Source: a virus (lineage: Duplodnaviria; Caudoviricetes). From it: a DNA stretch of 64,000 nucleotides. The position numbers and the translations under genes were made by a program. The notes beneath the pieces are model-generated. The model did no database searches. It was not told where the DNA came from and saw only the letters and a program-made list of their open reading frames with translations. The stretch lies in the IMG/VR virus record IMGVR_UViG_3300028591_000096; one strand, 5' to 3'. Shown here piece after piece: positions 9,420 to 35,230 of this stretch (within the stretch, counting starts at the first letter, position 1; each line of letters opens with the position of its first letter).

Positions 9420-11734
9420 TGTCAGATACATCTACATTATTCCCTTGTTGCATATCAATATGTGAATCTGATTCATCAACGGATCTTGAATATGTAATCA
9501 ATTCTGGTCTTGGTAATAATATATCATGTCCAGAAAAATTCATTGTCGAATTCGGTACAGAGAAACCTACAATATTATTAACACTAGGACAAAGAATATA
9601 TGTAGATCAAATTATAGGATACATGAGAGGTGTTAAGGTTAGATCTAAGATAAATGGAATAATAACAGATGTAACAGACAGATATTTCATAGGAATATAT
9701 GAACATGATTCTGATTACATTTTACAAAAATTAGGTATTACAGATTTGTCAGAGAAATTCATTAAACAACTTTTAACAAACAACAGTGAAAGCGATTTCG
9801 ACAAAATGAACGATCTTCTTAAAGAAAGTTCATATACTAACAATTTCATAAAGGATTATATTCTAAGGTTCAGATTTGCAGATATAGCTAACAATTATGT
9901 AAACTATTCTGCCGTTGGTGTATCTCAAGCATATAATAACACATCACGTATATGTGAAATGTATGATAGGGCTGCTGATTCAATAATTGACAGATACAAC
10001 AAAGAGATGAGAAATCTATGTTGTGCGGAAAGTGTAATGACATATTGTGAGAACGAAAACCTGATGGGACTCAAAATGGCGATTGATGGAACAAAGAAAA
10101 AATATTTCGATCAGATATTATGGCAATATAATAATGTTCCATCATTTGGATATAATTCTGGAAGAATAAGCGACATGATGCTTTATGATGAGTATCTTAA
10201 CTATATAACAAGCAATGAATTTGTATATGATGATGATAATCCTTATGTTGTTGAATTATTCTATCACATTACAACGTTCCTGCAAATAAGAAGCAGACTT
10301 GAGCTTAATAACACTAATATAGCTGGACTTATATCAAAGTTTAATACATTATGTAATGACAACATAAGGAAATATTGGGATGACAGAATGTATGACTACT
10401 ATGGTAGAATCAAGCAGATATTCTCTTTTGATTTCTATGCCGATAATGAGGATGATTTGATTCAAGCCAACATATATGATAAAAAAAGAGTTACACTTTA
10501 TTCAAAAGTTTTGAAGTATCTTACAACATTATGTAATTATACACCACCTATGTCTGTTGAGGAAAAATACAAGGATATGGATGTTAACAGTATTATCAAT
10601 AATGCACAGATACAAGATACTGCTTCAGAAAAGGCGGCAAAGCAATTATATTCTAATCTTAAAAAGATAGCTATATTCTTTGTACAACTAAGAAAGATTG
10701 AATCTGAGATTGATCCAAAGTATTTCAAGCAATTTGCTTCTGAACAAGATTATAATGATATATTCACACTTAAAGAACAATTAGGTAAACAGAATATTAA
10801 GGAATATATCATATCATACAACAACATGGCTGCTCTTGGTAAAACAAACCAAGCATTTCAATCAACACAAGATGAATTTACTGAATTTGAAAGTAAGTAT
10901 CTGGAACCTTTCAAGAAAATGGTTCAATCAGAATCAAGAATCCTTAGAAATCTTGCTGATAGGGCTATAAATTTCTATATATCAAACGATAATAAAATAA
11001 ACTCTGGTGAAATATTTGATCAATTCCAGGAAGTTGATTGGGGAGGAAAGAGTACAATTTTTAAAGACAATGAACCACACGATTTCTATTATCTTGTAGA
11101 ACCAACAACAACACAAGAGAAAATAAATTCTCCGTATATGAACGGAGGTAAGAAATCAAACGAAGATAATGACGGATATAAGTTCGATGAGAATTCGCTA
11201 AGAACTCAATTCGGAATAACTGATTACGAATATTGGGTGAAATATTGTGGAATTGCAACTATAGTAAATTGTATGCTTCCTATGTACTGGCCAACAGGAT
11301 TGATTGTTACAGGCGTCCCTATACCGATGCCTATCATATACATCCCATTTGCTGTAATTAAAGGAAGAGTTACTGTTGTAATAGGATTAGGTATATGTGG
11401 AATATGTCCGTTACCAATGTTATTGTTTGTCAATTTTGGTGACATTCCTGGTTCACTAATTCCAGCAATAAACATAGCGATAGATACACTTAAAGGATTA
11501 GTATCTATGATTCCATCTCTAAGTGTTCAACCAATTAAAGAAACAATAAAGGGAATGATTACAGACCAGGATAACAAAATAAATGATCTTAGAGAAAAGA
11601 AAAATGAAATAAAAAAGAATATACAAAATCTTCAAGTTGGTGTGAAAACAGATAAGGAAACACTTAGAAATCTTAAAAAGAAAAGAAAAGACAATCATAC
11701 AACAAATACAAAGAAAAAGCAATCAAGCGAATAA
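9419..11734 (+). CDS. Hypothetical structural protein with Pro/Cys-rich hydrophobic C-terminal region and coiled coil
   Basis: 771-aa ORF coupled to the upstream gene (TAATG) and followed by a terminator. Confidence 0.65.
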   Translation: MSDTSTLFPCCISICESDSSTDLEYVINSGLGNNISCPEKFIVEFGTEKPTILLTLGQRIYVDQIIGYMRGVKVRSKINGIITDVTDRYFIGIYEHDSDYILQKLGITDLSEKFIKQLLTNNSESDFDKMNDLLKESSYTNNFIKDYILRFRFADIANNYVNYSAVGVSQAYNNTSRICEMYDRAADSIIDRYNKEMRNLCCAESVMTYCENENLMGLKMAIDGTKKKYFDQILWQYNNVPSFGYNSGRISDMMLYDEYLNYITSNEFVYDDDNPYVVELFYHITTFLQIRSRLELNNTNIAGLISKFNTLCNDNIRKYWDDRMYDYYGRIKQIFSFDFYADNEDDLIQANIYDKKRVTLYSKVLKYLTTLCNYTPPMSVEEKYKDMDVNSIINNAQIQDTASEKAAKQLYSNLKKIAIFFVQLRKIESEIDPKYFKQFASEQDYNDIFTLKEQLGKQNIKEYIISYNNMAALGKTNQAFQSTQDEFTEFESKYLEPFKKMVQSESRILRNLADRAINFYISNDNKINSGEIFDQFQEVDWGGKSTIFKDNEPHDFYYLVEPTTTQEKINSPYMNGGKKSNEDNDGYKFDENSLRTQFGITDYEYWVKYCGIATIVNCMLPMYWPTGLIVTGVPIPMPIIYIPFAVIKGRVTVVIGLGICGICPLPMLLFVNFGDIPGSLIPAINIAIDTLKGLVSMIPSLSVQPIKETIKGMITDQDNKINDLREKKNEIKKNIQNLQVGVKTDKETLRNLKKKRKDNHTTNTKKKQSSE

Positions 11735-14069: not shown

Positions 14070-15752
14070 TTAAATCCTAGTCAAAACAGAATATTCTGCA
14101 TTTTTTTCAACCAATATATGCTCATCGAATAAATTTTCATCAAGCATAGTATGTGAAACTATGAATATATTAAGATTCATCTCCTTTGATATCTCCTTTA
14201 AATACTTTATAATCTCTGTTGAACTTTCATAATCCAGAGAACTTACAGTTTCATCAAGACAGACAAGGTTTATCTGAGGATATTTTCTTTTGATCATTTT
14301 CAACAGACTACACAATACAGTCAAATCTACTTTCTTATGTTCACCTATACTTAAACTCTTTGGTTTGATACTTCTTCCCAGGTATTGCATATGTGGATCA
14401 AAGTTGTTATCAAACTCAAGAGAATAAGGAAATCCTAAGAAATTCAAAGTCTCTGCTATTTCCTCATTAAGAGTTGGAATATAATTGTTCATAATTGTCT
14501 GTTTAATACCATCAGCAGAATACATTGTTTCGATTATTTCAAGCATCTTCATCTTTTTATTTGCATCAACTATACTCTTCTCAAGATCAGACTTAGTTTT
14601 ATTTGTCTGATTTATAATGTTTTGTATTGCAACAGATTCTTGTGAAATTGAACTTGATGCTTCTATTCTTGTATACTCTTTTGTAAGCTCGTTCTTTTTA
14701 TCATTTATTTTCTGGATATTAATCTGAACTTCTTGCATCTGAGAATTAATCGTGTTGAAATGTTCGAGTAATTCATTATGCTTTTGTGTATAAGATGTTA
14801 ATGTATCCTGTCTTTCCTTAAGTTGCCTCAAAAGATCATCTTTTATATTCTTAAATTCATCTGATGTAAAAGATGTACCACAAGTAGGACACTTATCATG
14901 GTTGAAAAGATTGATCTTCTTATTTATATTTCCTATTTCAAAATTCTCACCGTTAATTGCAGTTACAATTTGCTGATCAATCTTGTATGTATCATTGTAA
15001 GTATTATACAGCTGTGTATACAATGTATTCTGCTGCTGATAAAGAGCATCAACCTTTACAAGTTTTTGTTGTATTTCATAAAGCTTATCTTTTACATTAT
15101 CAGTACTTTCGTTATTATTCAGATTGTCAAGTTCAACCTGTGATGCTTTTATTGTTTGGTCAAGCGAATATATCTGAGAATTGCTTATATTGATAGAATT
15201 ACCAAGATCCTTCATGTCCTTTCTTACAAGTTCATAAACCTTGTTAATGATCTCAAGTGAAAATATCTTATCAATAATCAACCTCTTATCTGCTGGTGAC
15301 ATCGATATAAAGGATTTGAAGTTGTTAAGAGAAAGACTCATCACATTAGCAAAGATGTTGTAAGGCATATTATCAAGTATTTCTGTATCTATTATTCCTT
15401 GCATATTCTTCACACCAGCTTTGTCAAGAGGTTCATCATTTTTTGTTATAGTTAACGCTGAAGGAGAAAATGTTCTTTCAATTACATAAGTATCATTGTT
15501 CTTTACTATTGTTCCGCAAATCCATCCTTTCTTGTTAATCCAGTTAGAAACATCAGCCATATCTACTGGCTTACCGTCACCACCTTCAGTCTTTCCAAAA
15601 AGAAGCAACTTTGGTATAGACAAAAGACTACTTTTTCCAGATCCAGACTTACCAGACAACTGCCATAATTTTCCTTCATCGCTGAACTCTATTTCTGTGA
15701 TATCGTCACCATAACTGAATATGTTTCTCCATTGTAACTTTACTATTTTCAT
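14070..15752 (-). CDS. Recombination endonuclease ATPase subunit, gp46/SbcC/Rad50-like
   Basis: GKSGSGKSS Walker A, CPTCG zinc hook, LSIGE signature, LDE Walker B, VSH. Confidence 0.92.
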   Translation of the reverse strand: MKIVKLQWRNIFSYGDDITEIEFSDEGKLWQLSGKSGSGKSSLLSIPKLLLFGKTEGGDGKPVDMADVSNWINKKGWICGTIVKNNDTYVIERTFSPSALTITKNDEPLDKAGVKNMQGIIDTEILDNMPYNIFANVMSLSLNNFKSFISMSPADKRLIIDKIFSLEIINKVYELVRKDMKDLGNSINISNSQIYSLDQTIKASQVELDNLNNNESTDNVKDKLYEIQQKLVKVDALYQQQNTLYTQLYNTYNDTYKIDQQIVTAINGENFEIGNINKKINLFNHDKCPTCGTSFTSDEFKNIKDDLLRQLKERQDTLTSYTQKHNELLEHFNTINSQMQEVQINIQKINDKKNELTKEYTRIEASSSISQESVAIQNIINQTNKTKSDLEKSIVDANKKMKMLEIIETMYSADGIKQTIMNNYIPTLNEEIAETLNFLGFPYSLEFDNNFDPHMQYLGRSIKPKSLSIGEHKKVDLTVLCSLLKMIKRKYPQINLVCLDETVSSLDYESSTEIIKYLKEISKEMNLNIFIVSHTMLDENLFDEHILVEKNAEYSVLTRI

Positions 15753-19905: not shown

Positions 19906-19931
19906 AAAAGGTGAGAATTTTCTCACCTTTT
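19906..19931. terminator. Bidirectional intrinsic terminator
   Basis: AAAAGGTGAGAA-TT-TTCTCACCTTTT inverted repeat between convergent genes. Confidence 0.8.
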
Positions 19932-21561
19932 ATTTTAATATACCAAGTGCATATACCTGTTTTCTTAATTTACTAGCAAGTTTCTTATACAACGACCTGA
20001 ATTCCTTCAATCTGTCTGGATAATATTGTTTCCATAATGGCCTTAATTGATAATACCCAGCATCCCAGCACATGATATGAAGTTCTGGATGATCATTATC
20101 AAAAGAAAGTCGTTCCTTCATCGAATCAGATAAAAGATGTCGTGCATAATCAATTACATCTTTTGCTTCTTTGCTTAGTTTTTCTCCAACTTTTTCATCA
20201 AGTAATTCGTATGCATATCTATCATCATCATCGAATGTTGTCTTAACCATATCATAGTATTCATATTTGCCAGCAAGCTCCATCATTTTCTTTCTACTCA
20301 TAAAGAAAAATTCATTTTTTATCTTATATTCATATCCTTTCCATGTTGCTGGCTGTATTGCGCTCTGACAACTTGCAGAGTTAAACATGGAATAAACTAT
20401 ACTGTCAGATATAAATTCGGCCCATAATTCATAATTATCTTCAGTTATAACTGGTGCAAGAAACTCATCCTTATTGTTTATCCAATTATTTGTTATAACC
20501 TTTCTTGATGTAAAATTAGCACACACTGGCAAGAAATTTTCCTTTGTTATAGAGAAGCCAGACAATACATTATCTGGTGCTGTGCTCAGGATGTAGCACT
20601 GCTGAAGAGACTTATAAACATTATTACTTGCGTTTACATAGAATCCTATTGCATCTGTTGTTAGCATAGATCCATCTCGTTCACCAACAGTTACAGGATT
20701 TTTAAGTGTAATTGTTGGATAAGTCTTTTTGTTTTTCAATGGTTCTTTGCAGAATTTTCTAAAACTGTTTTTATTATCAATATTATATATTATCTTTGTT
20801 CCAATTTCTTCAATCTTTCCATTCTTTACTTCAATAAGGTTATGTTTGAAATAGTTTTTATTATTACATACACCAGATTTCCATAAAGACAAACTTATAC
20901 CCCATCTGTTTGAACATTTATCAAAATATGATGCATTAAACAAATAACCATCAAGAAAATTAAAAGATTCTAGAAATTGTTTCCTGAATTTCTCATATCC
21001 CGATCCAGACATGAAAACTGAGCTTGAAAATACACATATATTACAATTTGTAAGATTGTAACAATTCTTAATCATCATTATACGATAAAGAAACTGCGAA
21101 AAAAGATTCATTCTAGCATATTTCATATCATCCATGAATGATTGTGTATATGTATTGATTGAAACATCTTTTACCCCATCCTTAAAATCATTAGGAGCTG
21201 CATAAGGTGGATTCATTAGAAATATTATTGGTTTATCGTTAACCAAAGCATCATATAATCTTTGAGGTATGTGTAAACCTAAAAGTGATTTAATAGGATC
21301 GTTGAGAAAATCAAACTGAAATTTCTCAGCTTCTTTATTAGCATCAGATGCATCTATGTCACTTTTATGTAACGTAGATGCATACAAATGCTTAAATTTT
21401 TTAGATTTAGTTAAGTTTCCTATACCCCAAGCTGGATCCCAAACGTAATATTTGTTATACCAGTTTTTTCCAAAATGCTTCTCAAGTACAGTATGTGCAA
21501 AATTAGCAAATAATTCTGGAGTATAGAATTCTCCTTCTGATTTTTTATTTTTCATTAACAT
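19930..21561 (-). CDS. Orphan DNA adenine methyltransferase (gamma-type, with target-recognition domain)
   Basis: GEFYTP, VWDPAWGIGNL (motif I) and MNPPY (motif IV); no nuclease domain seen. Confidence 0.85.
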   Translation of the reverse strand: MLMKNKKSEGEFYTPELFANFAHTVLEKHFGKNWYNKYYVWDPAWGIGNLTKSKKFKHLYASTLHKSDIDASDANKEAEKFQFDFLNDPIKSLLGLHIPQRLYDALVNDKPIIFLMNPPYAAPNDFKDGVKDVSINTYTQSFMDDMKYARMNLFSQFLYRIMMIKNCYNLTNCNICVFSSSVFMSGSGYEKFRKQFLESFNFLDGYLFNASYFDKCSNRWGISLSLWKSGVCNNKNYFKHNLIEVKNGKIEEIGTKIIYNIDNKNSFRKFCKEPLKNKKTYPTITLKNPVTVGERDGSMLTTDAIGFYVNASNNVYKSLQQCYILSTAPDNVLSGFSITKENFLPVCANFTSRKVITNNWINNKDEFLAPVITEDNYELWAEFISDSIVYSMFNSASCQSAIQPATWKGYEYKIKNEFFFMSRKKMMELAGKYEYYDMVKTTFDDDDRYAYELLDEKVGEKLSKEAKDVIDYARHLLSDSMKERLSFDNDHPELHIMCWDAGYYQLRPLWKQYYPDRLKEFRSLYKKLASKLRKQVYALGILK

Positions 21562-22018
21562 GTATTATATTTTGGTTCGATGAACCTCTAAACGCCAAAT
21601 TGATATCAGCGTTATCAAGTTCAAAAGGACCATCTACAACAGTGTCACATTTACTCGCAACATCATATTGACTTTTAGTAAGTGAATCGAACTTATATCC
21701 AGTATAAAGCCATATTGTTTTATCTTCAGATTTCAAGAATCTTTCTTTGAATTTATCAATAAGCTTATTTACCCCTTCAAGATTATTAGGGTCTAATGGT
21801 TCTCCACCTAAAATTGTAAGACCAGAACAATATGTAGGCTCGATCGAGTCCAGAATACGTTCTATAACGTCGTCTGTAAAATCCTTACCATAATTAAAAT
21901 CCCATGCCTGTTTATTAAAACAACCTTTGCAGTGAATTCTGCAACCACTAACGAACACAGATGTACGTACACCTGTGCCGTTAGTTGTAGAACAATATTT
22001 AATATTAGCGTACTTCAT
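21545..22018 (-). CDS. nrdG: Anaerobic ribonucleotide reductase activase (radical SAM)
   Basis: NGTGVRTSVFVSGCRIHCKGCFN, GLTILGGEP, WLYTGY, VDGPF, FRGSSNQ; start at MKYANIK. Confidence 0.95.
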   Translation of the reverse strand: MKYANIKYCSTTNGTGVRTSVFVSGCRIHCKGCFNKQAWDFNYGKDFTDDVIERILDSIEPTYCSGLTILGGEPLDPNNLEGVNKLIDKFKERFLKSEDKTIWLYTGYKFDSLTKSQYDVASKCDTVVDGPFELDNADINLAFRGSSNQNIIHVNEK

Positions 22019-22028
22019 AATCGGTGTG

Positions 22029-22742
22029 TTATTTATTCTCATCAATATCAGTATGTATTACACGATTGTAAATATCATCAAGTCTCCCCTTGTTTGTATT
22101 TCCAGCGTTAACCTTTCCAAGATAACCACAAATACGTGCAGTAACATCTAATGTTTCATCATCATCATTTCCACAATTAGGACAAATGAATTTAAAGTTT
22201 CCATCCTCTGTTTTTATTAAATCGATATCACCTTCATATCCACACTTCTTACATACACCGATTTTTCTGTTAACTTCCGCGTATATAATGTGGTCATTCA
22301 TCCACTGAATGATTTTTATAATAGCCTCTTGATTATTGTTGAGATCTGCTGTTTCGACATAGCTTACAGCACCACCAGAAGATAATGCAAGATACTCTCC
22401 TTCAATCTCAAGTTTCTTGAATGCATCAATTTCCTCACGAGGATCAACATGATAGCTGTTTACAACATAATCTTTATCTGTAATCTTAGGAATAAATCCG
22501 AAATTCTTTCTCAAAGCAAGAGCGAACTTGTATGTCAAAGACTCTTCTGGTGTACCATATATCGCATACTTGATAAACTTACGTTTCTGTTTATCAATTG
22601 TTTTCACGCTGTAAACTCCGTTATCGTTTTCAATATAAACTACTACTTTATTGTTTATTTTTATTTCATCACTTGGATAAAGTCTATTACCAAATAAACT
22701 ACCTTTTTCAAGTGATGAAAACCAAAGATCTTTTGCAGTCAT
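22029..22742 (-). CDS. nrdD: Class III ribonucleotide reductase, C-terminal fragment (Zn ribbon and glycyl-radical domain)
   Basis: YAIYGTPEESLTYKF, YVVNSYHV, GGAVSYVE, CKKCG/CPNCG and TARICGYLG, after about 55 non-NrdD residues. Confidence 0.92.
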   Translation of the reverse strand: MTAKDLWFSSLEKGSLFGNRLYPSDEIKINNKVVVYIENDNGVYSVKTIDKQKRKFIKYAIYGTPEESLTYKFALALRKNFGFIPKITDKDYVVNSYHVDPREEIDAFKKLEIEGEYLALSSGGAVSYVETADLNNNQEAIIKIIQWMNDHIIYAEVNRKIGVCKKCGYEGDIDLIKTEDGNFKFICPNCGNDDDETLDVTARICGYLGKVNAGNTNKGRLDDIYNRVIHTDIDENK

Positions 22743-22743
22743 A

Positions 22744-24510
22744 TTATTTTATTAAAATTACCTTTTCAAAATTTGTACCTAAGTGACTTTTATTTTCTAT
22801 TGTATCAACAATAAATTTTTTGTATTTATGTGTATCATCTACAACAAACAGATAAGCTTTACATTTGAACTTTTCAATACATATGTCAATCCATTCATCA
22901 CATGTCTTATCGACATCGGAATCTCCGTTCCAGTTTTCCTTATCAGAGTATGGTGGACATGTAAACAGACATTCATATGATGTATTCTCATATTCAAATA
23001 TATTATGAGCAATCACAGAAGAATTATGATAATTCATATAATCTATTATGTCATTCGATTCTTTGACATGTGTGTCGTTGATATCGCTACCAATGTATTT
23101 CTTTCCACATAATTCAGTTCCTATCATCCTTCCAGAAAATCCTGAAAACGGATCGAATACTATATCATATTCGTTAAGATATCTTTCTATCAAATTCTTT
23201 GCAACCACTGGACTAAAAACAGAAACCTTTGGTGCTATTTTTGAAACGTTGAATCCATATATAATATCAGAAGGTTTACACGATCCAACATATTTCAATC
23301 TGTTTATCGCCGATTTCTCTATCAATAATGGATCCTTGAAAGCATCATATGGTGATTTAAAACCTTTTCTGTTGGCGTGATAAATTGATTTATGGAAATG
23401 TTTTATGACACCATCGAGAGATTTATCCTTGAAATTTTCATTTGGATATGGAAATTCTATATCTGTCTTGAACAATTTTAGATAGTGTTTGCTATATGTT
23501 TTATTTATATAGTCAAGAATCGGTTTAATTTGCTCGTATCTAAGTATCTCAACTCCGTTATGAAGCATACATTGGTGTTTTGCCTCATATATTTCGTCTT
23601 GTTCTTTCGATCTATCATACGGGTTAATCATTATATCACCGTCAAAAAACTGTTCACCTTTTATTTCTTGAAATTTTCCATTTACTTTAAAATCTGGATA
23701 ATAACGTTTACCTAGAAATTCAAAGAAATAATCAGGTTGATATTGGAAATCAATATCATGATCCGTTAAGTAGATATAATAAGCAAGCTCCCACGAACTA
23801 TCAAAAAAAATGTTTCTATAATTATATGATTGTTGACATTTAACTCTTACATCATGATTTGAAAACGGATGTTCGACTCCATATCTTCTGATACATGTTT
23901 CTTTAATCTTATCTTCTATATCCTTTGATTTTCTTGGATTATCTACACCATATCTTTCAATGTTTGTTTCCTTGATTTTATTTTTTATATCCTCATTTGC
24001 AAATACATTTTTGACTCCGTATCTTTTAATATTTGTCCGTTCTATTTTGTTTTTTACATCTTGTGAAAGGATTGATGCTACAACTCCATACTTTTCAAGA
24101 CATGTTTTCTTTGTTCTATCTTTTTGTTCCTGTCTTGCTGCTGGATGGCAACCATATCTTTCAATGTTTGTAGAACGAACTTTATTAAATATTTCAGATT
24201 TCTCTTCCTTTGTTTTATTTTTCCAGGTTTCTCTAATTTTCTGTTTGTTTGTATAGTGTGGATCGCCGTATCTTTCTAATTTAGTGATCTCTGCTTTTTT
24301 ATTTCTCGCTTCAAAATCAAATCTGTCAATGAAATCCTTCCTTTTACATTTCTTACAAAGTAATGGATCAGAAAGATAAACTGCATATTTGATATCGGTT
24401 TCTCCACATCTTGTACAAACAAACCTTACCTTTTGTTTCTGCTTATATTTCTTAAGATCTTCAAAAGATGTAAAATCTATAGGATTGTCTTGATATAACT
24501 TCTTATGCAT
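22744..24510 (-). CDS. Homing-endonuclease-like PD-(D/E)xK nuclease fused to an amino-methyltransferase, inserted within nrdD
   Basis: CTRCG/CKKC, six T(N/C/K)(I/L)x(R/K)YG repeats, DSSWE..YYPDF..EIKG nuclease, then FDPFSGFSGR and FTCPPY MTase motifs. Confidence 0.8.
   Translation of the reverse strand: MHKKLYQDNPIDFTSFEDLKKYKQKQKVRFVCTRCGETDIKYAVYLSDPLLCKKCKRKDFIDRFDFEARNKKAEITKLERYGDPHYTNKQKIRETWKNKTKEEKSEIFNKVRSTNIERYGCHPAARQEQKDRTKKTCLEKYGVVASILSQDVKNKIERTNIKRYGVKNVFANEDIKNKIKETNIERYGVDNPRKSKDIEDKIKETCIRRYGVEHPFSNHDVRVKCQQSYNYRNIFFDSSWELAYYIYLTDHDIDFQYQPDYFFEFLGKRYYPDFKVNGKFQEIKGEQFFDGDIMINPYDRSKEQDEIYEAKHQCMLHNGVEILRYEQIKPILDYINKTYSKHYLKLFKTDIEFPYPNENFKDKSLDGVIKHFHKSIYHANRKGFKSPYDAFKDPLLIEKSAINRLKYVGSCKPSDIIYGFNVSKIAPKVSVFSPVVAKNLIERYLNEYDIVFDPFSGFSGRMIGTELCGKKYIGSDINDTHVKESNDIIDYMNYHNSSVIAHNIFEYENTSYECLFTCPPYSDKENWNGDSDVDKTCDEWIDICIEKFKCKAYLFVVDDTHKYKKFIVDTIENKSHLGTNFEKVILIK
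23875..24290 (-). repeat. Six degenerate KETNIERYGV-type peptide repeats (phage endonuclease DNA-binding repeats)
   Basis: TKLERYG, TNIERYG, TCLEKYG, TNIKRYG, TNIERYG, TCIRRYG. Confidence 0.75.
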
Positions 24511-27500
24511 CTATCGTAAATTCCTCCTCTCCTGATATTGTGGTTAAATCTTTTTCATCAAACTCTCCTTCTGTAAACCATTGATTTATTCTGTTATTAA
24601 TGTAGGTCATGATTTCTTTACACAGTTTGCGACCATTTTCAGTGGTATTTGATTCACCTATCAAAGCCTGAACCGTTTCGTATAAACCCACATATCCAAG
24701 ACTTACTGTTGGACGAGTTGGATGAGCATCCATAAGATCACCAACTGTTTGATCTGGTTCCATTCTAGCTAAAGCACCATACATCCAAAGTATAGGTGAA
24801 TTCTTAGCTTTGATTTTTCTACATGATTTCACACGCTCTTGCATACCATGTCTACAAACCTCAAGCCACTTATCAAGATTTTCATAAAAATCTATTCCGT
24901 TTTTTCTTGCTTCAAGAGCGACATAAGGAAGGTTTATGGTTATTACACCATTATTCCATCTTCCATAAACAATAGGCTCCTTTATAGTAACCTCAGTGTC
25001 TGTCTTTTTGATAAGCCAACCAGTGTTACCTCTGAAATTAATACAATACTGACCTTCATCATATCCATACTTATATTCTCCATTTGGTACACTATCAAAT
25101 GTTTTAGCTTCTCTAAACTGATCATAAGGATAAGTTCCACCTTCGGTCCAGAAGAATTCTTTATCTATAGGATATGTTTTATCTTCCCAGATAGGACCTA
25201 GCAATGAACGACAATTATGTGATTGAATTCCTGAAACATCGAATCTATCACTTGATGTTGTAACATCATATGAATATTCATCAATATATCCAAGATCTAT
25301 AATATCAGTGACAACATATGGTTTTTCTTTATGCTTTCTATTTAAAACAGAGTAGTTATTCTTTTTCTTTTGACAAACAATATTTTCAACAATTTCATCA
25401 TTTGTTTCAAAATATATGCGATATCGTATTTTGGATAAATCGTTTGATGTATAATGATTCAGTAAAGATTTTGCATTATAGCCAATAGTATTAGCAAGAT
25501 ACATCGTCTGTAATGCAAGTTCTTTGTTTGTAGATCCAACTTCAACTGTATTAAAATGATGTTCAGATTTATGAATATACCCATCAGCATCTATTATTCC
25601 ACCCATAAATGCAACACGAGCTTCTCTTTTGGCATTAATAATAAATGATGGAATATGTCTATCTGCCTTTTTTGTCCCTCCGAAGATTTCGATTAATTTT
25701 TTAGATATATCTTTAATTGAAACATCACCAGAAACAGCTCTAACTTCTTTATAATTACCTTTAACACATCTATACCATTCTTTCACATATGTATCGAGAT
25801 TAAAATATATTTTCACACATTTTTGATATTTTTCTATAATGTCGTCCTCACCTGTCATGGCAAATGTAGATGAAAGCTGTCTATCATAACAGCCATCACA
25901 CATTATTATACCAAGAAGCCAAGCATAATCTGGATCAACATCTATAGAATCAGATGAATATGCAAAGTTAGTTGCTTCAATCTCATCACCAACTTGAAGA
26001 TCACTAACTTCTGTTCTTCCTAACCCTACAACATGTAAAGGGTGATCTGATGTACATTTAAGAGAACGTCCGTTGCTGAGTTTAATAATTTTCCAATCAC
26101 CCTGATCTGAATTTTTGTTCATTCTTTTACATTCAACAAATGAACCAGATGTACTATCATAGATTTCAACTCCGACCAAATTTATATAATAACAATCAGA
26201 AGCTTCCTGCAAGAGTACATCGAAATTATCAGACATTCTTGACCACATTCTTCCGATAGATTCAACATAAACTTCATCGTTGAACTTATATGTAACAACC
26301 TCATTCTTATCAACACATCCCATACACGGTATAATTTGTCCTTGTTTATATTTACGTGTCTGTGACTCAGAAACAATATCAGGTTGCATACGTTTTGATA
26401 TACACTTAGCTGCAAGTTCTGTCAGATAATAATAAGGATCTCCTTTCTTTACGTTTAAACCATCACAAGTCCAATATAACAGTTTTGGGAACAGTGGGCT
26501 GATATAGTTACCAGAAGGATCCTTTACACCCTTTATGCGACGTTTTAGAATCTCTTCAATTATAAGTGCAAAATCATCAAGTTCTTGTTTTGTTCTCGCT
26601 TCACGTAAGCAAAGATTGTTTGATACAAAAGGTGTCTGTCCGTTTGCCGACGAATGACACAATATCTGATATTGATATATCTTAACTCCTTCAGATATTT
26701 CATCACGAACTTTCTTTTCTGTAATAGAATTTAATTTATCTTCTGATAACTGAACACCAATATCATTAAAGTCCTGTAATATTTTTTTGCGAATAATCTT
26801 TCTTGTTTGATCTACATAATGAACAAGATGAATCCATGACATCGTTTGACCACCATATTGTCTTCCAGAAATAAGAAGGGCTATTTGTGCTGCAAGATTA
26901 ACCATTGTTCTAAATGGTGTTTCATCATTAGGTTCAATCTTCGTATCTCCCATAACAAAGCCATTCTTAAACATATCTTCCAGATTATAAAGATCGCAAT
27001 TTATTAATGGCTGAGTAGGACTATAATCAGCATCATGCCAGTGTATTATACCTTCATTATGAGCCTTTATAATCTCTTTTGGAAGAGTTTTATTTGCAAG
27101 AGATTTACACATTATACCAGCAATATAATCTCTTATTGAAGCGTTGTCATCAATATGCTTGTTCGCATTATCACCTCTGAGAGAAGATGTTCCATCTATT
27201 AAAGACAAAATCTTTTCCTCATTTTCGGTATACTTCTTGTTTCTTTTCTTGTTATCTCTGTAAAGTATATATGATTTTGCAACAGCATATTTATTATGTC
27301 TTACAAGTGCCTGTTCAACAAAATCCTGAATATCTTCAACTTTTACTGAGTTAAATCCTGTAAGCTTCTTCTGTACGGTTGATAAAACCTTTTGAATTGC
27401 ATCATCATTCATTTTATCCTCATCACCGACAGTACTGTTAGCTTTCATTATTGCTTTCTCAATTTTATCTAGGCAAAAATCCTGCTCTGATTCGTTTCTT

Positions 27501-27514
27501 TTGATTACTCGCAT
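24503..27514 (-). CDS. nrdD: Class III ribonucleotide reductase, N-terminal fragment (ATP cone and catalytic barrel) containing an intein
   Basis: MRVIKRN ATP cone, IHWHDAD, QYGGQT, NGQTPF, FPKL, MG/CRS, YGRWNNGVITINLP, SLGYVGLYE; ends before YGTP. Confidence 0.92.
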   Translation of the reverse strand: MRVIKRNESEQDFCLDKIEKAIMKANSTVGDEDKMNDDAIQKVLSTVQKKLTGFNSVKVEDIQDFVEQALVRHNKYAVAKSYILYRDNKKRNKKYTENEEKILSLIDGTSSLRGDNANKHIDDNASIRDYIAGIMCKSLANKTLPKEIIKAHNEGIIHWHDADYSPTQPLINCDLYNLEDMFKNGFVMGDTKIEPNDETPFRTMVNLAAQIALLISGRQYGGQTMSWIHLVHYVDQTRKIIRKKILQDFNDIGVQLSEDKLNSITEKKVRDEISEGVKIYQYQILCHSSANGQTPFVSNNLCLREARTKQELDDFALIIEEILKRRIKGVKDPSGNYISPLFPKLLYWTCDGLNVKKGDPYYYLTELAAKCISKRMQPDIVSESQTRKYKQGQIIPCMGCVDKNEVVTYKFNDEVYVESIGRMWSRMSDNFDVLLQEASDCYYINLVGVEIYDSTSGSFVECKRMNKNSDQGDWKIIKLSNGRSLKCTSDHPLHVVGLGRTEVSDLQVGDEIEATNFAYSSDSIDVDPDYAWLLGIIMCDGCYDRQLSSTFAMTGEDDIIEKYQKCVKIYFNLDTYVKEWYRCVKGNYKEVRAVSGDVSIKDISKKLIEIFGGTKKADRHIPSFIINAKREARVAFMGGIIDADGYIHKSEHHFNTVEVGSTNKELALQTMYLANTIGYNAKSLLNHYTSNDLSKIRYRIYFETNDEIVENIVCQKKKNNYSVLNRKHKEKPYVVTDIIDLGYIDEYSYDVTTSSDRFDVSGIQSHNCRSLLGPIWEDKTYPIDKEFFWTEGGTYPYDQFREAKTFDSVPNGEYKYGYDEGQYCINFRGNTGWLIKKTDTEVTIKEPIVYGRWNNGVITINLPYVALEARKNGIDFYENLDKWLEVCRHGMQERVKSCRKIKAKNSPILWMYGALARMEPDQTVGDLMDAHPTRPTVSLGYVGLYETVQALIGESNTTENGRKLCKEIMTYINNRINQWFTEGEFDEKDLTTISGEEEFTIDA
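25214..26317 (-). mobile_element. 368-aa intein with LAGLIDADG homing endonuclease, inserted immediately before the thiyl-radical Cys
   Basis: PCMG|CVDKNE...CTSDHP...LLGIIMCDG...FMGGIIDADG...YSYDVTT...QSHN|CRSLL. Confidence 0.93.
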
Positions 27515-27639
27515 TATGTTTATTAATTGGTTTTTTAGAATTAATTGTGAAATAAATCTCACCATTTTCAAGTTTACTGTGAGATATTTATTCATGCTTT
27601 TGTAACTTATGTTCTGATAGGGACTTCCATACAATGCTA

Positions 27640-27654
27640 TGCAAATATACAACT
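27640..27654 (-). promoter_or_regulatory. Bacteroidota -7 box AGTTGTATATTTGCA upstream of the nrdD operon
   Basis: Identical 15-mer, about 125 nt upstream of the nrdD ATG. Confidence 0.8.
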
Positions 27655-27697
27655 TTTAATCTAATTTGAAAACCGTTACTCGAATAAATATGTTTTC

Positions 27698-27706
27698 AGA
27701 TAAATA
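27698..27706 (+). promoter_or_regulatory. Late promoter AGATAAATA
   Basis: 25 nt upstream of the ATG at 27732. Confidence 0.7.
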
Positions 27707-27731
27707 GTAAAAATAAGAACACTCTTATCTG

Positions 27732-28184
27732 ATGGCAGATAATATAACATTTCTGGAAGAAAACTGGGAGGAAAACAAAGAATATCTAAACTGGCCAGGA
27801 TTACAATATCTTTGGTACACAAAGGTTAAACCAGCCATTTATCAAAATATTAGCACAATAAAAGGTAGAATAGATGACGAAAATTGGTATATAACATATG
27901 ATGCTAGTACTGGAGAAGTATACATTACCGTAAACGAAGATTCATCCACATTCTACTTTGATCAAGATGGAAGCTGTGGATGTATACAAGAATTTAACGG
28001 TATGCTTCAAGTTATAACAAACAGGGATTTCTCTCTGATGGTTGATGGTTTTATAGACGATCACATAGGTGCAATAGGAAAGAATTCTGATCAAATAGGA
28101 GATGCAACTGGCAAATTATATGTCAATTTTGAAAGAAACTATGAATATGCTGATCCGCACGGTGATGAAACATATGGAGAATAA
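27732..28184 (+). CDS. Hypothetical acidic protein (late)
   Basis: 150-aa ORF with its own late promoter and terminator. Confidence 0.7.
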   Translation: MADNITFLEENWEENKEYLNWPGLQYLWYTKVKPAIYQNISTIKGRIDDENWYITYDASTGEVYITVNEDSSTFYFDQDGSCGCIQEFNGMLQVITNRDFSLMVDGFIDDHIGAIGKNSDQIGDATGKLYVNFERNYEYADPHGDETYGE

Positions 28185-29818: not shown

Positions 29819-32800
29819 TTAAGCTACTGTAGCACCAGTCTGTTTGTAAGTCTGTTGTGAAGCAAATCTTCTAGCAGCCTTTGCAACAGCACGACAAGCA
29901 CCATCAAGATCAACAAGGAAGTCTGTCATATTTTCCTCGTTATTTGCATTGATAACAGAACTACATGTGTAGAATACATCATTCAACAGAGGAAGTGTTA
30001 TATTCATCCAATCTATAGCACCGTTTGTCTTGATTGTATTAGCAATCTCAATAACCTTATTAAGCTGGTTTCTGATACGTCTAATCATATCTTCCTTAGT
30101 TGCGAAATGATCGACTGCATCTTCAGATGCACCAGCAAAATCAAGATTCTTCATTGCGTCATTAACCTTAACAATGTCACCAGACAAATCGTCAATAACT
30201 TGAGCAAATTTTGTCTTTGTTTGCTCAGTCTTAGCATCTTCACCGTTATCCTGCTGTGCAGATACATTAGAAGCTTTCTTACTACGGTTTCTTTCACCAA
30301 GTTTCTTCATTTTCTTGGCCGTAATATTAGCAGCTTCGTCTGATTCACCAGCAAGAATCTTGTACTCCTCACCAAATCTCATTGCTGACTTTACAAGCTT
30401 TTCGCCTTCATCCACTATAGCTTTATAATCATTTTCTGGATTAACGATAAACTCAATATGATCAATAACATCATTAAGAGTTTCTACCATTTTTTCAATG
30501 ACATCCTGTTTCTTTGTAATAAGATCCTCATTATTAATCAATTTAGACTTAATAAGATTAGAATAATTATAAAGTATATCTACACTATCATCTATTTTAC
30601 TTAAAAGTGTTTTATTACTATACCAACTATGTGCGTTTGTATATTCATCTATAGCGTTCTTTAATGCATTTTTAACATCATTAAATATTAATTTATTTGC
30701 TAAAATATAATCAATACATCCGCTAAAACTTGCAAATATGTCATTCTGATCTGCGATTTTTTTAGATGAGCTTGCACCTTTAATATCATTACGTGTTCTT
30801 TCTCCAGTTGCACGATCATAATCGTAATTCTTTATATCATTATACATACCAGATTTATAGATATCACGAAGAACTTTCTTTCCCACAAGTTTAAGAGCTT
30901 CATCGTTAACATCAACACGGATATCATATTCCTTTTCACATTTGTCAGGGAACATCATAAGAACATCAAATGGATTAGAATGATCATAATTATCATCTGT
31001 ATCTTTATCTTTACCCTTAAACGAAAGTGATTTTAATGCTGTTTTAACATTATCAACGTCTTTGATAGAATCTATCATATTAAGAAGTTCTGATCTATCA
31101 GCATCAATAATTTCATCAATTGTATATCTTGGTTTATCATCAACACCTCTTAATGAAGATCCAATAAGCAAAGCTTTTATAAAGTTATCAGAGAAGAATG
31201 TAAACACATTTTGTCCATTATTTGATGAAAAATATGCACCGTTGAACTCAGTTTTTGCATTATAATTTGGACTCTTTCCATTCTGTTTAAATGGAATTGT
31301 ATATTTTCTATTTCTTGTATAAACTATAACAGAATCTCCTTTTTCTCTGTAACTACCAAACATATCATTTAGTAATTTTGCAAAAATTTCATCATTATCA
31401 GAACAATTTCTAATAAGATTTGGTTCAAGAATATTTTCAACCTTAAAATGATACTTATCTTCAACTGTTAATCCTCTTAATGTTGCCATCACAAAATAAA
31501 GAATATGTAAAGCTGTGTCTTCAATAGATGCTGGTCCATTTTTATCATCTTCATGATATTTTGCATCTGGAATATTACCTGGATCAATTCCAAGACTATC
31601 AAGATAAGTATAAGTCTGCTTCAATACATTATATCTAAAATCAATTTCTTGCTTAATCTTTTCTTGATCCGTAATAGGATTACCATCGCTATCAGTAAGA
31701 AAAACAATTTTTGCATCCTTACCTTTTTTATCTTGAGCATACACTGCGCTTATAACATCATCGGATGTTGTAAACAATCTAATGCCAGCATATCCTAACT
31801 GGTTTATATTATCTTTATGCTTCTCAAAATACTTAGTTTCTCTTGCTGCTAATCTAACTTGACTAATATCTGTTATAACAGTAACATCATCATCTTTTAT
31901 ATCACCCCATCCAACATTAAGTATAGGATCAATCACATCGAAGAATACATTTCTATTCTTCTTGTATAGTTCAGTTGATGCTATATAATCATCTTCAGAA
32001 ACCTTGCTTCCAGCTTGAGGTTTTGAACGTCTTGGAAATATAGTGCTAAGTTTCTTAGGCATAGCCATTTCATTAATAAATGACTCACTTAGAGCTATTC
32101 TGTTCTTAATGATATCAGCTACACTTTCGTTATTTCTCTTAGTCATTGTAAATACATGTTTTGGTTTATTTTCGAGTTCACTTATTGGTGTAAGAGTCTT
32201 CATCAATGATGTAACATATTTATTCTGAGCATCCTTTGATATATGTTTATTCATTGGATAACATACATTGATTGATACACGCCCAGTAACTGCCTGTGGA
32301 GCATTGTCAAATCCACCCAAATTGGCAAGATTAAACATTACTAAATCACCACCTATTTCCTTAGGGAACCCAACAGGGAATCCTCTGAATGTTCTGGTAT
32401 TCTTCAGTTTTACATTACCGATAAGCTGATCGATAGTCATTACGGAACAAGCTTCGCAGAGATTATTGATGTTAGATCCATCAACATCCATATGAAGAAT
32501 AACATGAGCTTCCTCTGTAACATAATATGTATTAGGAGTAGCCATTACAGCCGTATATTCCTTTACCATATTACAGTTAGGGAAGAACTTTTCCAGATTA
32601 GCAACAAGTTCAGGAAGAACCTTCTCAAGCTGACCCACAGCACGAGCACCCTGAATTTCGGCTTTTCTCAGACGCTCATTCTTTTCATCTTCTGTTCTTT
32701 CAGATGGATCGATCTGAGCTTGTTGTTGCTTTTGCTGAATCTTCTTCAAGCCTCCAAGAGCCTCGTTCATATTCATTCTCTTTTGGTTAATATTCATTGA

Positions 32801-35230
32801 TTCACTTTTCAAGTCGATAATACCACGACTCTTTCTGATACGATCTTCAATTTTCTTCATTGTTTCAGCGGCTTGAGACGCAAACTCCTTTTTCCATTCT
32901 TCAGATGGATCGATCTGACCTTGTTGTTGCTGTGTCTGACCTTGACTCTTTCTGATACGATCTTCAATTTTCTTCATTGTTTCAGCGGCTTGAGACGCAA
33001 ACTCCTTTTTCCATTCTTCAGATGGATCGATCTGACCTTGTTGTTGCTGTGTCTGACCTTGTTGTTGCTGTGGCGGAATCTTCTTCAAGCTTCCAAGAGC
33101 CTCGTTCATATTCATTCTCTTTTGGTTAATATTCATTGATTCACTTAATATTTGTTTTCTAAATGCTTCTACTGAAATTTCATAGTGTTGTGAATACTTT
33201 GATACAAGTTGATCCATTTCTTCTGTAACTTCCTTGAGATACATATTAGCATAATCGTTATATATTACGTAAAGCATTCTCTCAAGTGTATGCTGACCTA
33301 ATTTAGCCGCGAATGGTTTAATGTTTCCAGAATACTGCATGCCAGAAACGTCTGTAATGATAATGATCGCATTAATATCATAATTAAGCTCACCATCATT
33401 CATATAGTTCTTGATAATATGCTTGTAAACTTCGTGAATGTTCGTACCACCACCGTCATCAGCACCTTCAATACCCCAGTTTTCATCCTGTACTGTATAT
33501 GAATCCACATCAAAGTGTTCATTATATACAACATCATCAAACAGATGAATATCAACAGTATTGAAATGACAATCCTGCATAATCTTTCCAACTTCACCAG
33601 CCATGATAGGAATAAGCTGTGTCATGCCGTTATTTACAGAACCAGATGTATCTATATATACAACACACTTATTAAAATCATTGAAAGCCTTTACTCTATG
33701 TTTAAGACCTATACCAGTTCTCTGATATACGTTCTTACGTAGTGGGCCTTTTTCATATGTATGAGATCTCTCGGAAATAAAATCCTGTAAGGCTTTTTTC
33801 CAGTCGATAATACCTTCACGACTCTTTCTGATACGACCTTCAATTTTATTCTTCATTGTTTCAGCGGCAGACACAAGCTCCTTATCGTCTTGTGGGGCAT
33901 GTTTGAATATATCGCCAATGATAGGGAATGCTTCTTTAATCATAGCGTCTTCATCATCACTCATACCCCAATCTGGATCCTTAGGTGTAACACCCATTTC
34001 CTTGCGTATTTCATCACCTATCTTTTCATCTATTACGTGAGCACCAATCATAAGTTCACCTGGATCTACTGTTCCGTTCCTCATAACAATAACATCATCT
34101 GGAACATAGATTTCTTTCTCTTCTGGATCCTGTTGTTTGTTTCCACTACCTTTTATTGTATTTCTGAACAGATCATGAATCTTGCTTGTTCTCTCATCAT
34201 CATTTATACTTGTATCATCGAGCAAAGCTGCAATGTCATCATCGATAGATTCATTCAATGATTCGAGAATCTTCATAGGATCAAGATTATCTGGAAGCTC
34301 AACCTGGTCTCTCATAACAGGTGCAAGACCTCTATGTTTGTACATTTCCTCAGCATATTTCTTACCAAGAATATATCCTATAGAATATTCGTCAATCTGT
34401 GAAGCATTTTCTTGTGAACCTTGTTGCTGTTGGTTTCCTTGTCCATGCTGACCGTTTTGATTCTGGCTTTGTGAATTACCTTGTCCTTGACCTTGCTGTT
34501 GGTTTCCTTGTCCCTGCTGTCCTTGTGAACCACCACCTTGACCATTCTGATTACCAGATTGTCCCTGCTGTCCACCTTGCTGACCTTGAGACTGTGAACC
34601 ACCTTGTCCGTTTTGCTGATTACCTTGAGATCCTTGAGATCCTCCACCGTTCTGTTGATTACCAGACTGGTTTCCTTGCTGTCCGCTTTGAGAACCACCA
34701 TTTGATCCTTGATTACCAGATTGATTACCTTGCTGACCATTTTGTCCACCATTTGAACCATTCTGACCTTGATTACCAGACTGATTACCCTGATTTCCTT
34801 GTGATCCGTTTCCGTTTTGCTGATTACCATTCTGTTGACCATTCTGACCAACACCCTGATTCTTCAACTGATTATGGCTTACATTATGGACACCATTGTT
34901 ATTGTTCTGTCCATTCTGTCCCTGACCCTGTCCTTGACCTTGACCGTTTTGTCCCTGTCCCTGACCGTTCTGACCTTGTTGACCGTTACCTTGATTCTGA
35001 CCCTGGCCTTGTCCCTGACCATTCTGATTCTGATCATCATTTTGTCCGTTGCCACTATTTCCACCAGAGGCAGAATTACCAGCACCACCAGCATCTTTTG
35101 TATCAGCACCAGTCACACCACCAGAATTTGCGGAATTGTAAATATCCTTAATCTTCTGGATTTTCTCTTGCTTGGATAATGTCTTATCCTGTACAACTTG
35201 GTTGATTTCTTTTTTTACATCGTAACGCAT
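29819..35230 (-). CDS. Giant VWA (DUF2201-type) protein with Q/N/G low-complexity tract and long C-terminal extension
   Basis: IDWKKAL, VYIDTSGSV (MIDAS), GGGTN, IIITD; adjacent to an HExxH peptidase and a MoxR ATPase. Confidence 0.85.
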   Translation of the reverse strand: MRYDVKKEINQVVQDKTLSKQEKIQKIKDIYNSANSGGVTGADTKDAGGAGNSASGGNSGNGQNDDQNQNGQGQGQGQNQGNGQQGQNGQGQGQNGQGQGQGQGQNGQNNNNGVHNVSHNQLKNQGVGQNGQQNGNQQNGNGSQGNQGNQSGNQGQNGSNGGQNGQQGNQSGNQGSNGGSQSGQQGNQSGNQQNGGGSQGSQGNQQNGQGGSQSQGQQGGQQGQSGNQNGQGGGSQGQQGQGNQQQGQGQGNSQSQNQNGQHGQGNQQQQGSQENASQIDEYSIGYILGKKYAEEMYKHRGLAPVMRDQVELPDNLDPMKILESLNESIDDDIAALLDDTSINDDERTSKIHDLFRNTIKGSGNKQQDPEEKEIYVPDDVIVMRNGTVDPGELMIGAHVIDEKIGDEIRKEMGVTPKDPDWGMSDDEDAMIKEAFPIIGDIFKHAPQDDKELVSAAETMKNKIEGRIRKSREGIIDWKKALQDFISERSHTYEKGPLRKNVYQRTGIGLKHRVKAFNDFNKCVVYIDTSGSVNNGMTQLIPIMAGEVGKIMQDCHFNTVDIHLFDDVVYNEHFDVDSYTVQDENWGIEGADDGGGTNIHEVYKHIIKNYMNDGELNYDINAIIIITDVSGMQYSGNIKPFAAKLGQHTLERMLYVIYNDYANMYLKEVTEEMDQLVSKYSQHYEISVEAFRKQILSESMNINQKRMNMNEALGSLKKIPPQQQQGQTQQQQGQIDPSEEWKKEFASQAAETMKKIEDRIRKSQGQTQQQQGQIDPSEEWKKEFASQAAETMKKIEDRIRKSRGIIDLKSESMNINQKRMNMNEALGGLKKIQQKQQQAQIDPSERTEDEKNERLRKAEIQGARAVGQLEKVLPELVANLEKFFPNCNMVKEYTAVMATPNTYYVTEEAHVILHMDVDGSNINNLCEACSVMTIDQLIGNVKLKNTRTFRGFPVGFPKEIGGDLVMFNLANLGGFDNAPQAVTGRVSINVCYPMNKHISKDAQNKYVTSLMKTLTPISELENKPKHVFTMTKRNNESVADIIKNRIALSESFINEMAMPKKLSTIFPRRSKPQAGSKVSEDDYIASTELYKKNRNVFFDVIDPILNVGWGDIKDDDVTVITDISQVRLAARETKYFEKHKDNINQLGYAGIRLFTTSDDVISAVYAQDKKGKDAKIVFLTDSDGNPITDQEKIKQEIDFRYNVLKQTYTYLDSLGIDPGNIPDAKYHEDDKNGPASIEDTALHILYFVMATLRGLTVEDKYHFKVENILEPNLIRNCSDNDEIFAKLLNDMFGSYREKGDSVIVYTRNRKYTIPFKQNGKSPNYNAKTEFNGAYFSSNNGQNVFTFFSDNFIKALLIGSSLRGVDDKPRYTIDEIIDADRSELLNMIDSIKDVDNVKTALKSLSFKGKDKDTDDNYDHSNPFDVLMMFPDKCEKEYDIRVDVNDEALKLVGKKVLRDIYKSGMYNDIKNYDYDRATGERTRNDIKGASSSKKIADQNDIFASFSGCIDYILANKLIFNDVKNALKNAIDEYTNAHSWYSNKTLLSKIDDSVDILYNYSNLIKSKLINNEDLITKKQDVIEKMVETLNDVIDHIEFIVNPENDYKAIVDEGEKLVKSAMRFGEEYKILAGESDEAANITAKKMKKLGERNRSKKASNVSAQQDNGEDAKTEQTKTKFAQVIDDLSGDIVKVNDAMKNLDFAGASEDAVDHFATKEDMIRRIRNQLNKVIEIANTIKTNGAIDWMNITLPLLNDVFYTCSSVINANNEENMTDFLVDLDGACRAVAKAARRFASQQTYKQTGATVA
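32737..33146 (-). repeat. In-frame composite duplication: 117-bp tandem repeat x2 (32827-33060) flanked by 71-bp direct repeats (32737-32807 and 33076-33146)
   Basis: Directly visible. The 39-aa unit is QGQTQQQQGQIDPSEEWKKEFASQAAETMKKIEDRIRKS. Confidence 0.92.
34400..35135 (-). repeat. Roughly 245-codon Gln/Gly/Asn/Ser low-complexity coding tract
   Basis: QGQGQ, NGQQG and GNQSGNQ units in translation. Confidence 0.9.

Follow-up and report, generated by a model that had tools for sequence, protein, structure and literature searches.

Why does a gene that resembles a phage homing endonuclease, and that splits a ribonucleotide reductase gene, carry a methyltransferase as well? The question is raised by an open reading frame (ORF) at 22744..24510 (-) in a 64,000-nucleotide stretch of the virus record IMGVR_UViG_3300028591_000096 (Caudoviricetes), the whole of which was analysed and is called the window below. 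The ORF lies between two pieces of nrdD. Selfish nuclease elements are classically of two kinds, homing endonucleases and restriction-modification systems; the former avoid self-cutting by disruption or mutation of the target, the latter by methylation. An original prediction, made from the letters alone, held the encoded protein to be a homing-type endonuclease fused to a DNA methyltransferase. This is borne out by the DUF7487 and PHROG matches and by the insertion in nrdD, for which alleles with and without the homing endonuclease gene (HEG-plus and HEG-minus) exist. By identity, architecture and mobility the gene is very probably a free-standing homing endonuclease gene of the Hef/DUF7487 kind whose product carries an S-adenosylmethionine (SAM)-dependent amino-methyltransferase. 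The explanation set out below is, as a whole, considered the probable one, with less assurance than the identity.

Identity of the gene and its nuclease half

The ORF begins with ATG, comprises 588 codons plus the stop and coincides exactly with 22744..24510 (-) in the ORF list of the window. The G+C content of the region is about 31% and stop codons are frequent there, so that 588 codons without a stop cannot be attributed to chance. Pfam DUF7487 (PF24308) matches amino acids 109-237 with 87.8 bits against a cut-off of 27 (E 1.3e-24), and 'homing endonuclease' families of PHROG match the N-terminal half with E values of 8e-20 and 3e-15 (PHROG 3339 and 12131). By tblastn this half matches proteins annotated as Hef or homing endonucleases in phages of Campylobacter, Dickeya, Escherichia and Klebsiella. 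Among 50,697 GenBank phage records no tblastn match covered at least 80% of the protein, and a megablast search of the locus against the same records gave zero matches.

The N-terminal half consists of three parts. A zinc ribbon occupies amino acids 27-58 (24337..24432 (-)) and is recognised by its CxxC pairs, spaced C32-x2-C35 ... C52-x2-C55; in an alignment of 33 sequences each of these cysteines is conserved to 90% or more, C55 without exception. It is followed by six helical KYG repeats at amino acids 66-225 (23836..24315 (-)), found from both motifs and model, which presumably form a DNA-binding array. The (K/R)YG ends of the repeats fall at amino acids 80-82, 118-120, 140-142, 163-165, 186-188 and 209-211, and the number of repeats differs between homologues in the same alignment. 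The third part, delimited by conservation and fold, is a PD-(D/E)xK nuclease core at amino acids 226-348 (23467..23835 (-)) with the motifs FDSSWE (236-241), YYPDF (270-274) and EIKG (282-285), i.e. a classical E...PD...ExK catalytic motif. S238, E241, P272, D273, E282 and K284 are invariant among the 33 sequences; across 41 nuclease-domain sequences there is little or no variation at E241, D273, E282, K284 and K311.

An AlphaFold2 model of the whole protein, built with 33 homologues, is confident, with a mean predicted local distance difference test (pLDDT) of 89.7. It has a ribbon of two strands (E27-31 and E38-42), a long helix for each repeat and a nuclease core of alpha/beta type, after which come a helical subdomain and a Rossmann fold. 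The nuclease domain was also modelled by itself (pLDDT 90.9), and this model matched only proteins of the restriction-endonuclease fold: Vsr, I-Bth0305I, Bax1, TnsA, VRR-NUC and RecU. The Z scores, 5.6 for Vsr, 5.3 for Bax1 and I-Bth0305I and 5.1 for TnsA and VRR-NUC, with Foldseek E values of at least 0.017, are modest and support the fold class, not a specific subfamily. Hef-type enzymes have been tied to the Vsr-like I-Bth0305I family (PMC3239194). The protein has all the features by which a Hef/DUF7487 homing endonuclease can be recognised computationally, namely the repeats, the nuclease fold with its residues, a free-standing gene and presence/absence polymorphism.

Insertion in nrdD and mobility

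The gene splits nrdD into two pieces. Piece 1 (24503..27514 (-); Pfam and PHROG matches and alignment of NrdD) comprises the ATP-cone, the NrdD core as far as the residue that corresponds to T4 432, and a tail of 18 amino acids. Piece 2 (22029..22742 (-); Pfam NRDD and Gly_radical) opens with a head of 57 amino acids, takes up NrdD at the counterpart of T4 residue 433 and runs to the glycyl-radical C-terminus. The break is exact when the pieces are aligned to solved NrdDs, piece 1 ending at T4 432 (9d3x 552) and piece 2 resuming at 433 (553), with no NrdD residues lost. The acidic tail (24506-24559 (-)) and the head (22572-22742 (-)) are additions at the break; both are kept in a 185-kb contig (L092) and are missing from intact NrdDs, and they may be docking peptides for a two-piece NrdD. 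The stop of piece 1 overlaps the ATG of the endonuclease gene (ATGCATAA) and the ATG of piece 2 lies 1 nt beyond the endonuclease stop, a layout that suits translational coupling.

No intron was found by Rfam in the whole window at gathering score, and at E<=1 over 21500-28000 there was again no intron, the only match being a chance one to a CRISPR repeat. Both junctions are bridged by contigs of three other gut-metagenome studies and of a sheep-gut RNA library, and in four public runs neither a spliced nor a gene-less joint turned up. The RNA-library contigs are only a weak hint of co-transcription, since DNA may occur in such libraries. The best sample match for the locus is a sheep gut metagenome, and the source of the phage is probably the ruminant gut.

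Alleles with and without the gene are found. L092 has a gene of 78% identity at the same nrdD site, and nrdD is uninterrupted at this site in a syntenic 220-kb contig (L072) and in a 387-kb viral contig (L073). The uninterrupted sequence around the break, of the L072 type, reads ...INNILSEWKKNDNIMYAIYGTPEE.... Presence in some relatives and absence from others at one site is the pattern shown by mobile homing endonuclease genes. Cleavage of the gene-less allele by the nuclease followed by gene conversion would account for it. L073 also has a Hef-like gene (8570-10318 (+), 582 amino acids) between its intact nrdD and nrdG; the product has a zinc ribbon, KYG repeats and a Vsr/DUF559-like nuclease and no methyltransferase, so the nrdD-nrdG region is also targeted by a cousin of the protein that lacks this module. 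The inteins vary as well. The nrdD of L072 carries one at a different site (after HNC) from that in piece 1 of the window, L092 has both and L073 has none. In this phage group nrdD is thus a hotspot, with three or more mobile elements that are independent of each other. In a study of Jug phages, endonuclease genes are described as commonly splitting nrdD in gut jumbo phages and a methyltransferase is unmentioned (PMC12880540).

The methyltransferase module

The C-terminal 240 amino acids, here called the C-module, begin with a linker (FPYPN) and a helical subdomain (amino acids 349-445, 23176..23466 (-)), defined by conservation and the model and characterised by HFHKSIY...SP..AW...NRLKY; H373, S375, A379, A401 and N403 are invariant among the 33 aligned sequences. 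The remainder (amino acids 446-588, 22747..23175 (-)) is a Rossmann-fold SAM-methyltransferase core according to Foldseek, BFVD and PADLOC. Motif I, DPFSGFSG, forms the SAM-binding loop (amino acids 453-460, 23131..23154 (-); FDPFSGFSG at 452-460), YIGSDIN, with the acidic D476 of motif II, lies at 472-478, and motif IV is TCPPY (517-521, 22948..22962 (-)), with Cys replacing the usual Asp, Asn or Ser. D453-R461, D476, T517, C518, P520 and Y521 are invariant in the alignment. Motif I precedes motif IV, and the protein ends 67 residues past motif IV with the last Rossmann strands.

All motifs quoted in the original prediction for the 588-amino-acid frame occur in the translated ORF. Its description of the module as a complete amino-methyltransferase holds for the Rossmann core and for the SAM-binding and catalytic motifs; it does not extend to a separate target-recognition domain, of which none is recognisable, and the match to PF01555 is below the cut-off.

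The best Foldseek matches of the Rossmann part in the PDB are small amino-methyltransferases of gamma order: Trm11 (E 1.2e-6), METTL5, PH1948, RsmD/YhhF and TGS1. SAM- or sinefungin-bound methyltransferases are among the matches with E of about 1e-6. The nearest viral models, in BFVD, are N4-cytosine DNA methyltransferases of Pithovirus, and the stretch with motifs X, I and II matches PADLOC models of Type II methyltransferases with E values down to 1.7e-8. Searches of PDB sequences with this protein gave weak matches only. The X-I-II stretch also aligns to PF01555 and to M.MboIIA, the latter being matched weakly by both halves, in permuted order. PF01555 scores 24.5 bits against a cut-off of 26.7; among 77 relatives it matches 36 at E<1e-3 (best 1.5e-9) and PF09445 (RNA-cap) matches five. 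Going by its score, the permuted motif order and the Cys in motif IV, the protein is not a member of PF01555.

DPFSGFSG was found in 194 of 202 family proteins. The tally of motif IV across the family is 181 CPPY, 19 CSPY and one SPPY, and the Cys is a fixed signature of the family, not a defect. TCPPY does not fit the (D/N/S)PP(Y/F/W) of DNA amino-methyltransferases. Cys resembles the Ser of SPPY enzymes in size and shape and could have a similar role, and the single natural Ser variant fits a Cys that plays the part of that Ser. A metal cluster of four cysteines (C518, C537, C544 and C550), all invariant in the first alignment, was considered and rejected, as C537 and its neighbours are lost in the distant C-modules L057, L066, L070 and L071 while the motif IV Cys is kept. 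The fold, the invariant motifs and the matches at sequence level favour an active DNA methyltransferase, a reading held as probable and not beyond that.

Another ORF with methyltransferase-like motifs lies beside nrdG (19930-21561 (-), 543 amino acids). It has EFYTP, VWDPAWGIGN and LMNPPYA, resembling gamma-class N6-adenine methyltransferases. Nothing in Pfam, PHROGs, NCBIfam, PADLOC or PDB sequences matched it. The HEG-plus L092 has this ORF (8256-9881) and the HEG-minus L072 lacks it, so that it may represent another insertion or else a second, divergent methyltransferase of the phage.

Distribution of the fusion

A word-indexed search gave 1,550 homologues, the best 120 of which cover 74-100% of the query. 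The C-module alone was used in an exhaustive HMMER search of representatives of 50% identity clusters (E<=1e-30). This gave 257 representatives; about 138 of the best 150 (about 90%) have the module C-terminally in proteins of 400-880 amino acids. DUF7487 was found in 40 of 77 sampled representatives, and the remaining ones include treble-clef zinc fingers, NUMOD3, Vsr or another restriction-endonuclease domain. These numbers rule out a one-off read-through fusion. Fusion is the normal state in a large and almost exclusively viral family: clusters in the ESM Atlas, automatically labelled 'DUF7487/DNA methylase domain-containing protein', are nearly all viral, and among 185,579 species genomes there were only eight loci, all on contigs of metagenome bins and several per bin.

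Profile mapping of 64 ORFs from viral contigs resolved three recombining modules: the C-module, the zinc ribbon with repeats, and a nuclease core that comes in more than one type. Endonuclease-only relatives of about 300-370 amino acids stop 1-19 residues beyond the nuclease domain. Stand-alone C-modules of 275-363 amino acids are found in L027, L039, L061, L069 and L070 and always include the helical subdomain. Lak megaphages have 7-14 tblastn matches per genome. One such protein, of Prevotella phage Lak-A2 (MK250019.1; L172 1427-3331 (+), 634 amino acids) has two zinc-ribbon-like motifs, a Lys/Glu-rich linker and a C-module (with TCSPY) and no recognisable nuclease. Three copies of the family occur on one contig and two on each of five; no second copy was found by tblastn within the window.

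A search for the same architecture and its insertion contexts had been proposed along with the original prediction, and it showed the fusion to be recurrent and members of the family to lie beside core genes. The neighbours in other viral contigs are Gp23, the major capsid protein (6-7 cases), NrdD (four), portal, large terminase, sheath, RNA polymerase and nrdG. Compared with the copy of 78% identity in L092, the gene has a dN/dS ratio of about 0.06 as a whole, 0.10 in the repeats and 0.12 in the Rossmann core, figures that are rough because dS is saturated. All domains are under purifying selection and none looks relaxed. To judge by these ratios and by the invariant catalytic motifs, neither the nuclease nor the methyltransferase is likely to be inactive.

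No description of a Hef-like or other homing endonuclease fused to a methyltransferase was found in the literature searched, which took in DUF7487 as well. The kind of homing endonuclease is known, and the methyltransferase-fused form is a new variant of it.

Role of the methyltransferase

In the proposed mechanism, the zinc ribbon and repeats would bind a long site across the conserved coding region for ...YAIYGTPEE... in the uninterrupted nrdD of co-infecting phages. The nuclease would cut the bound site and recombinational repair would copy the gene in (homing), after which the split NrdD may work as two chains, by analogy with nrdA/mobE of phage Aeh1 (PMC3045599). The tethered methyltransferase would act on DNA, as an N4-cytosine or N6-adenine enzyme, and would be brought to the same neighbourhood by the same array. 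Its methylation would mark DNA against cutting by the partner nuclease or by related ones. Such immunity would be most useful to members of the family that lie beside, and not inside, an intact target gene.

This protective coupling of methyltransferase to nuclease, already suggested in the original prediction, is plausible but a tentative proposal, put at somewhat less than even. Protection local to the site is favoured over other roles because the module is almost always tethered to DNA-binding arrays of the homing type, because several diverged copies coexist within one genome, and because most members adjoin an intact target gene, where immunity is needed. A fuller version, a hybrid of homing and restriction-modification, is a little more doubtful still. 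One programmable array would deliver both the nuclease and the Cys-PPY methyltransferase to a single long site. Methylation during the preceding infection would make virion DNA immune, and unmethylated co-infecting alleles would be cut and converted. Free-standing homing endonuclease genes could then invade fully conserved genes without a resistant target polymorphism, and nuclease-less relatives such as those in Lak phages could be pure immunity factors against such endonucleases.

Several observations weigh against this explanation. The presumed target is already broken up by the insertion, and protection of the present allele should hence not require methylation, yet the methyltransferase half is conserved. 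The C-module, including the helical subdomain, is the best-conserved part of the family and the DNA-binding half is variable, which argues against a member-specific target sequence being read by the methyltransferase. The closest solved folds (Trm11, METTL5, RsmD) are RNA or protein amino-methyltransferases, the PF01555 score misses its cut-off, and the dN/dS ratios are imprecise. L072 is the best HEG-minus relative found, and its DNA identity near the site is about 80% only; recent homing is thus not demonstrated, and neither a target nor a co-conversion tract can be read. To our knowledge there is no characterised precedent for Cys at the catalytic D/N/S position, and the chemistry could therefore differ.

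The methyltransferase could also be cargo, an orphan enzyme of broad specificity that acts on DNA against host restriction and that the fusion lets travel with a selfish gene, or that gives this gene a value to the phage, with no link to the nuclease target. Phages commonly carry orphan methyltransferases, the C-module does exist alone, and the helical subdomain, the candidate for recognition, is highly conserved across different DNA-binding halves, as expected of one common specificity. This account is nevertheless unlikely, as some 90% of the best 150 representatives have the C-module in a fusion, which is kept with two or more types of nuclease; two or three diverged copies per contig would be redundant for general anti-restriction, and a second methyltransferase-like ORF (NPPY) is already present 1.2 kb away. 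Slightly less likely again is a role in control as in Type IIG enzymes, where the methyltransferase fold would be a SAM-dependent recognition or allosteric module, with base flipping as in the MmeI and BpuSI types, and methylation incidental. The near-obligate association with endonuclease halves would suit such a role, as would the order of an N-terminal PD-(D/E)xK nuclease and a C-terminal gamma-order amino-methyltransferase in one chain, and the nuclease domains of BpuSI and BsaXI are among the weak fold matches (Z 2.8-2.9). The related endonuclease-only proteins, however, end just past the nuclease, which suggests cleavage independent of the module; the Lak-phage relatives combine zinc ribbons and C-module with no recognisable nuclease, and the full catalytic motif set is invariant.

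It is improbable that the C-module methylates RNA or protein in the manner of Trm11, RsmD or METTL5, for example a tRNA or rRNA of host or phage, in which case the fusion would be mechanistically meaningless. The best solved structures are indeed m2G and m6A methyltransferases of tRNA and rRNA and a lysine methyltransferase, archaeal Trm11 was matched in a profile search of PDB sequences (E 0.005), and PF09445 (cap guanine-N2) is annotated on some homologues. The fold cannot separate these substrates, though, and the matches at sequence level favour DNA methyltransferases; the module is almost always tethered to DNA-binding arrays of the homing-endonuclease type, and a Pfam scan found no THUMP, PUA or other RNA-binding domain. 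Least probable of all is that the gene is borne by an intron or an intein, the pieces of nrdD being rejoined by RNA or protein splicing. Related jumbo gut phages are rich in small group I introns that standard searches miss (PMC12880540), and piece 1 of nrdD already has an intein. Against splicing stand the negative Rfam searches, even at E<=1, and the three ORFs that overlap or abut, leaving no space outside coding sequence for ribozyme arms. The RNA-library contigs cross both junctions unspliced with no joint seen, and the endonuclease, flanked by no intein blocks, is read from a start to a stop codon of its own.

A viral family in which the fusion of homing endonuclease and methyltransferase is the rule makes a long-discussed evolutionary link between the two kinds of selfish element directly testable, the methyltransferase being conserved and, from its motifs, apparently active. 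The coupling is a candidate explanation for the persistence of free-standing endonuclease genes beside intact conserved phage targets. A repeat array that steers both nuclease and methyltransferase could be a scaffold for site-directed DNA methylation, and a Cys-PPY catalytic motif would widen the known chemistry of amino-methyltransferases. There is also a warning for annotation: ORFs labelled 'DNA methylase' that break core genes in gut jumbo phages are mobile elements.

Other genes in the window

The nrdG gene, for the activating enzyme, lies downstream of the split nrdD (21545..22045 (-); Pfam Fer4_12, E 9.5e-47, and Radical_SAM). The intein in piece 1 of nrdD (25214-26317 (-)) is of the LAGLIDADG type and has 368 amino acids, CVDKNE...QSHN, followed by C. 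An ORF of 1,803 amino acids (29819-35230 (-)) has a low-complexity N-terminus of about 250 amino acids rich in Gly, Gln and Asn, and a duplicated internal segment in which GQTQQQQGQIDPSEEWKKEFASQAAETMKKIEDRIRKS occurs twice; it is conserved in L072. The ORF at 14070-15752 (-) matches an SbcC-like nuclease subunit (PHROG 77, E 3e-73) and that at 7252-8778 (+) an endolysin-domain protein (PHROG 894). For most of the other large ORFs in the window PHROG gave no match, which is consistent with a poorly known gut phage of the jumbo type.

Comparison with known systems

Hef-type free-standing homing endonucleases are known from T4-related phages and from Campylobacter and Dickeya phages (Sandegren et al. 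2005, as cited in PMC3296691). The present protein shares with them the N-terminal half of zinc ribbon and KYG repeats, the free-standing location within or beside conserved genes of phages, those for ribonucleotide reductase included, and the habit of occurring in several copies. Annotated Hef proteins match this half only, whereas the present protein adds the C-terminal methyltransferase module of 240 amino acids. The relatives of I-Bth0305I are reported to have a Vsr-like EDxHD motif, in contrast to the E...PD...ExK found here.

A parallel to the locus is nrdA of Aeromonas phage Aeh1, which is split by the homing endonuclease gene mobE (PMC3045599). In both cases a free-standing gene divides a ribonucleotide reductase into separately translated pieces with extra peptides at the break. 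The present case differs in that the gene is nrdD and not nrdA, and in that the endonuclease is a Hef-type PD-(D/E)xK enzyme and not of the HNH kind; mobE has no methyltransferase.

The module itself resembles the beta-class N6-adenine/N4-cytosine DNA methyltransferases of PF01555 (such as M.MboIIA) and the small gamma-order enzymes Trm11, RsmD and METTL5 in its Rossmann fold, DPFxGxG motif I, acidic motif II and xPPY motif IV. It is unlike PF01555 in having motif I before motif IV (permuted), Cys in place of Asp, Asn or Ser, and no separate recognition domain.

With the Type IIG/IIL enzymes (MmeI, BpuSI, Eco57I), which work on the principle of self-protection through their own methylation, the protein shares the arrangement of an N-proximal PD-(D/E)xK nuclease and then a gamma-order amino-methyltransferase in one polypeptide. 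Those enzymes have about 900-1,000 amino acids; the present protein has about 590, is phage-borne and lies at a homing-type insertion site. It also differs in lacking a C-terminal target-recognition domain and in having CPPY and not NPPY, and it presumably binds DNA through a zinc ribbon and a repeat array of the sort typical of homing endonucleases. It is therefore no Type IIG enzyme, but it may work like one.

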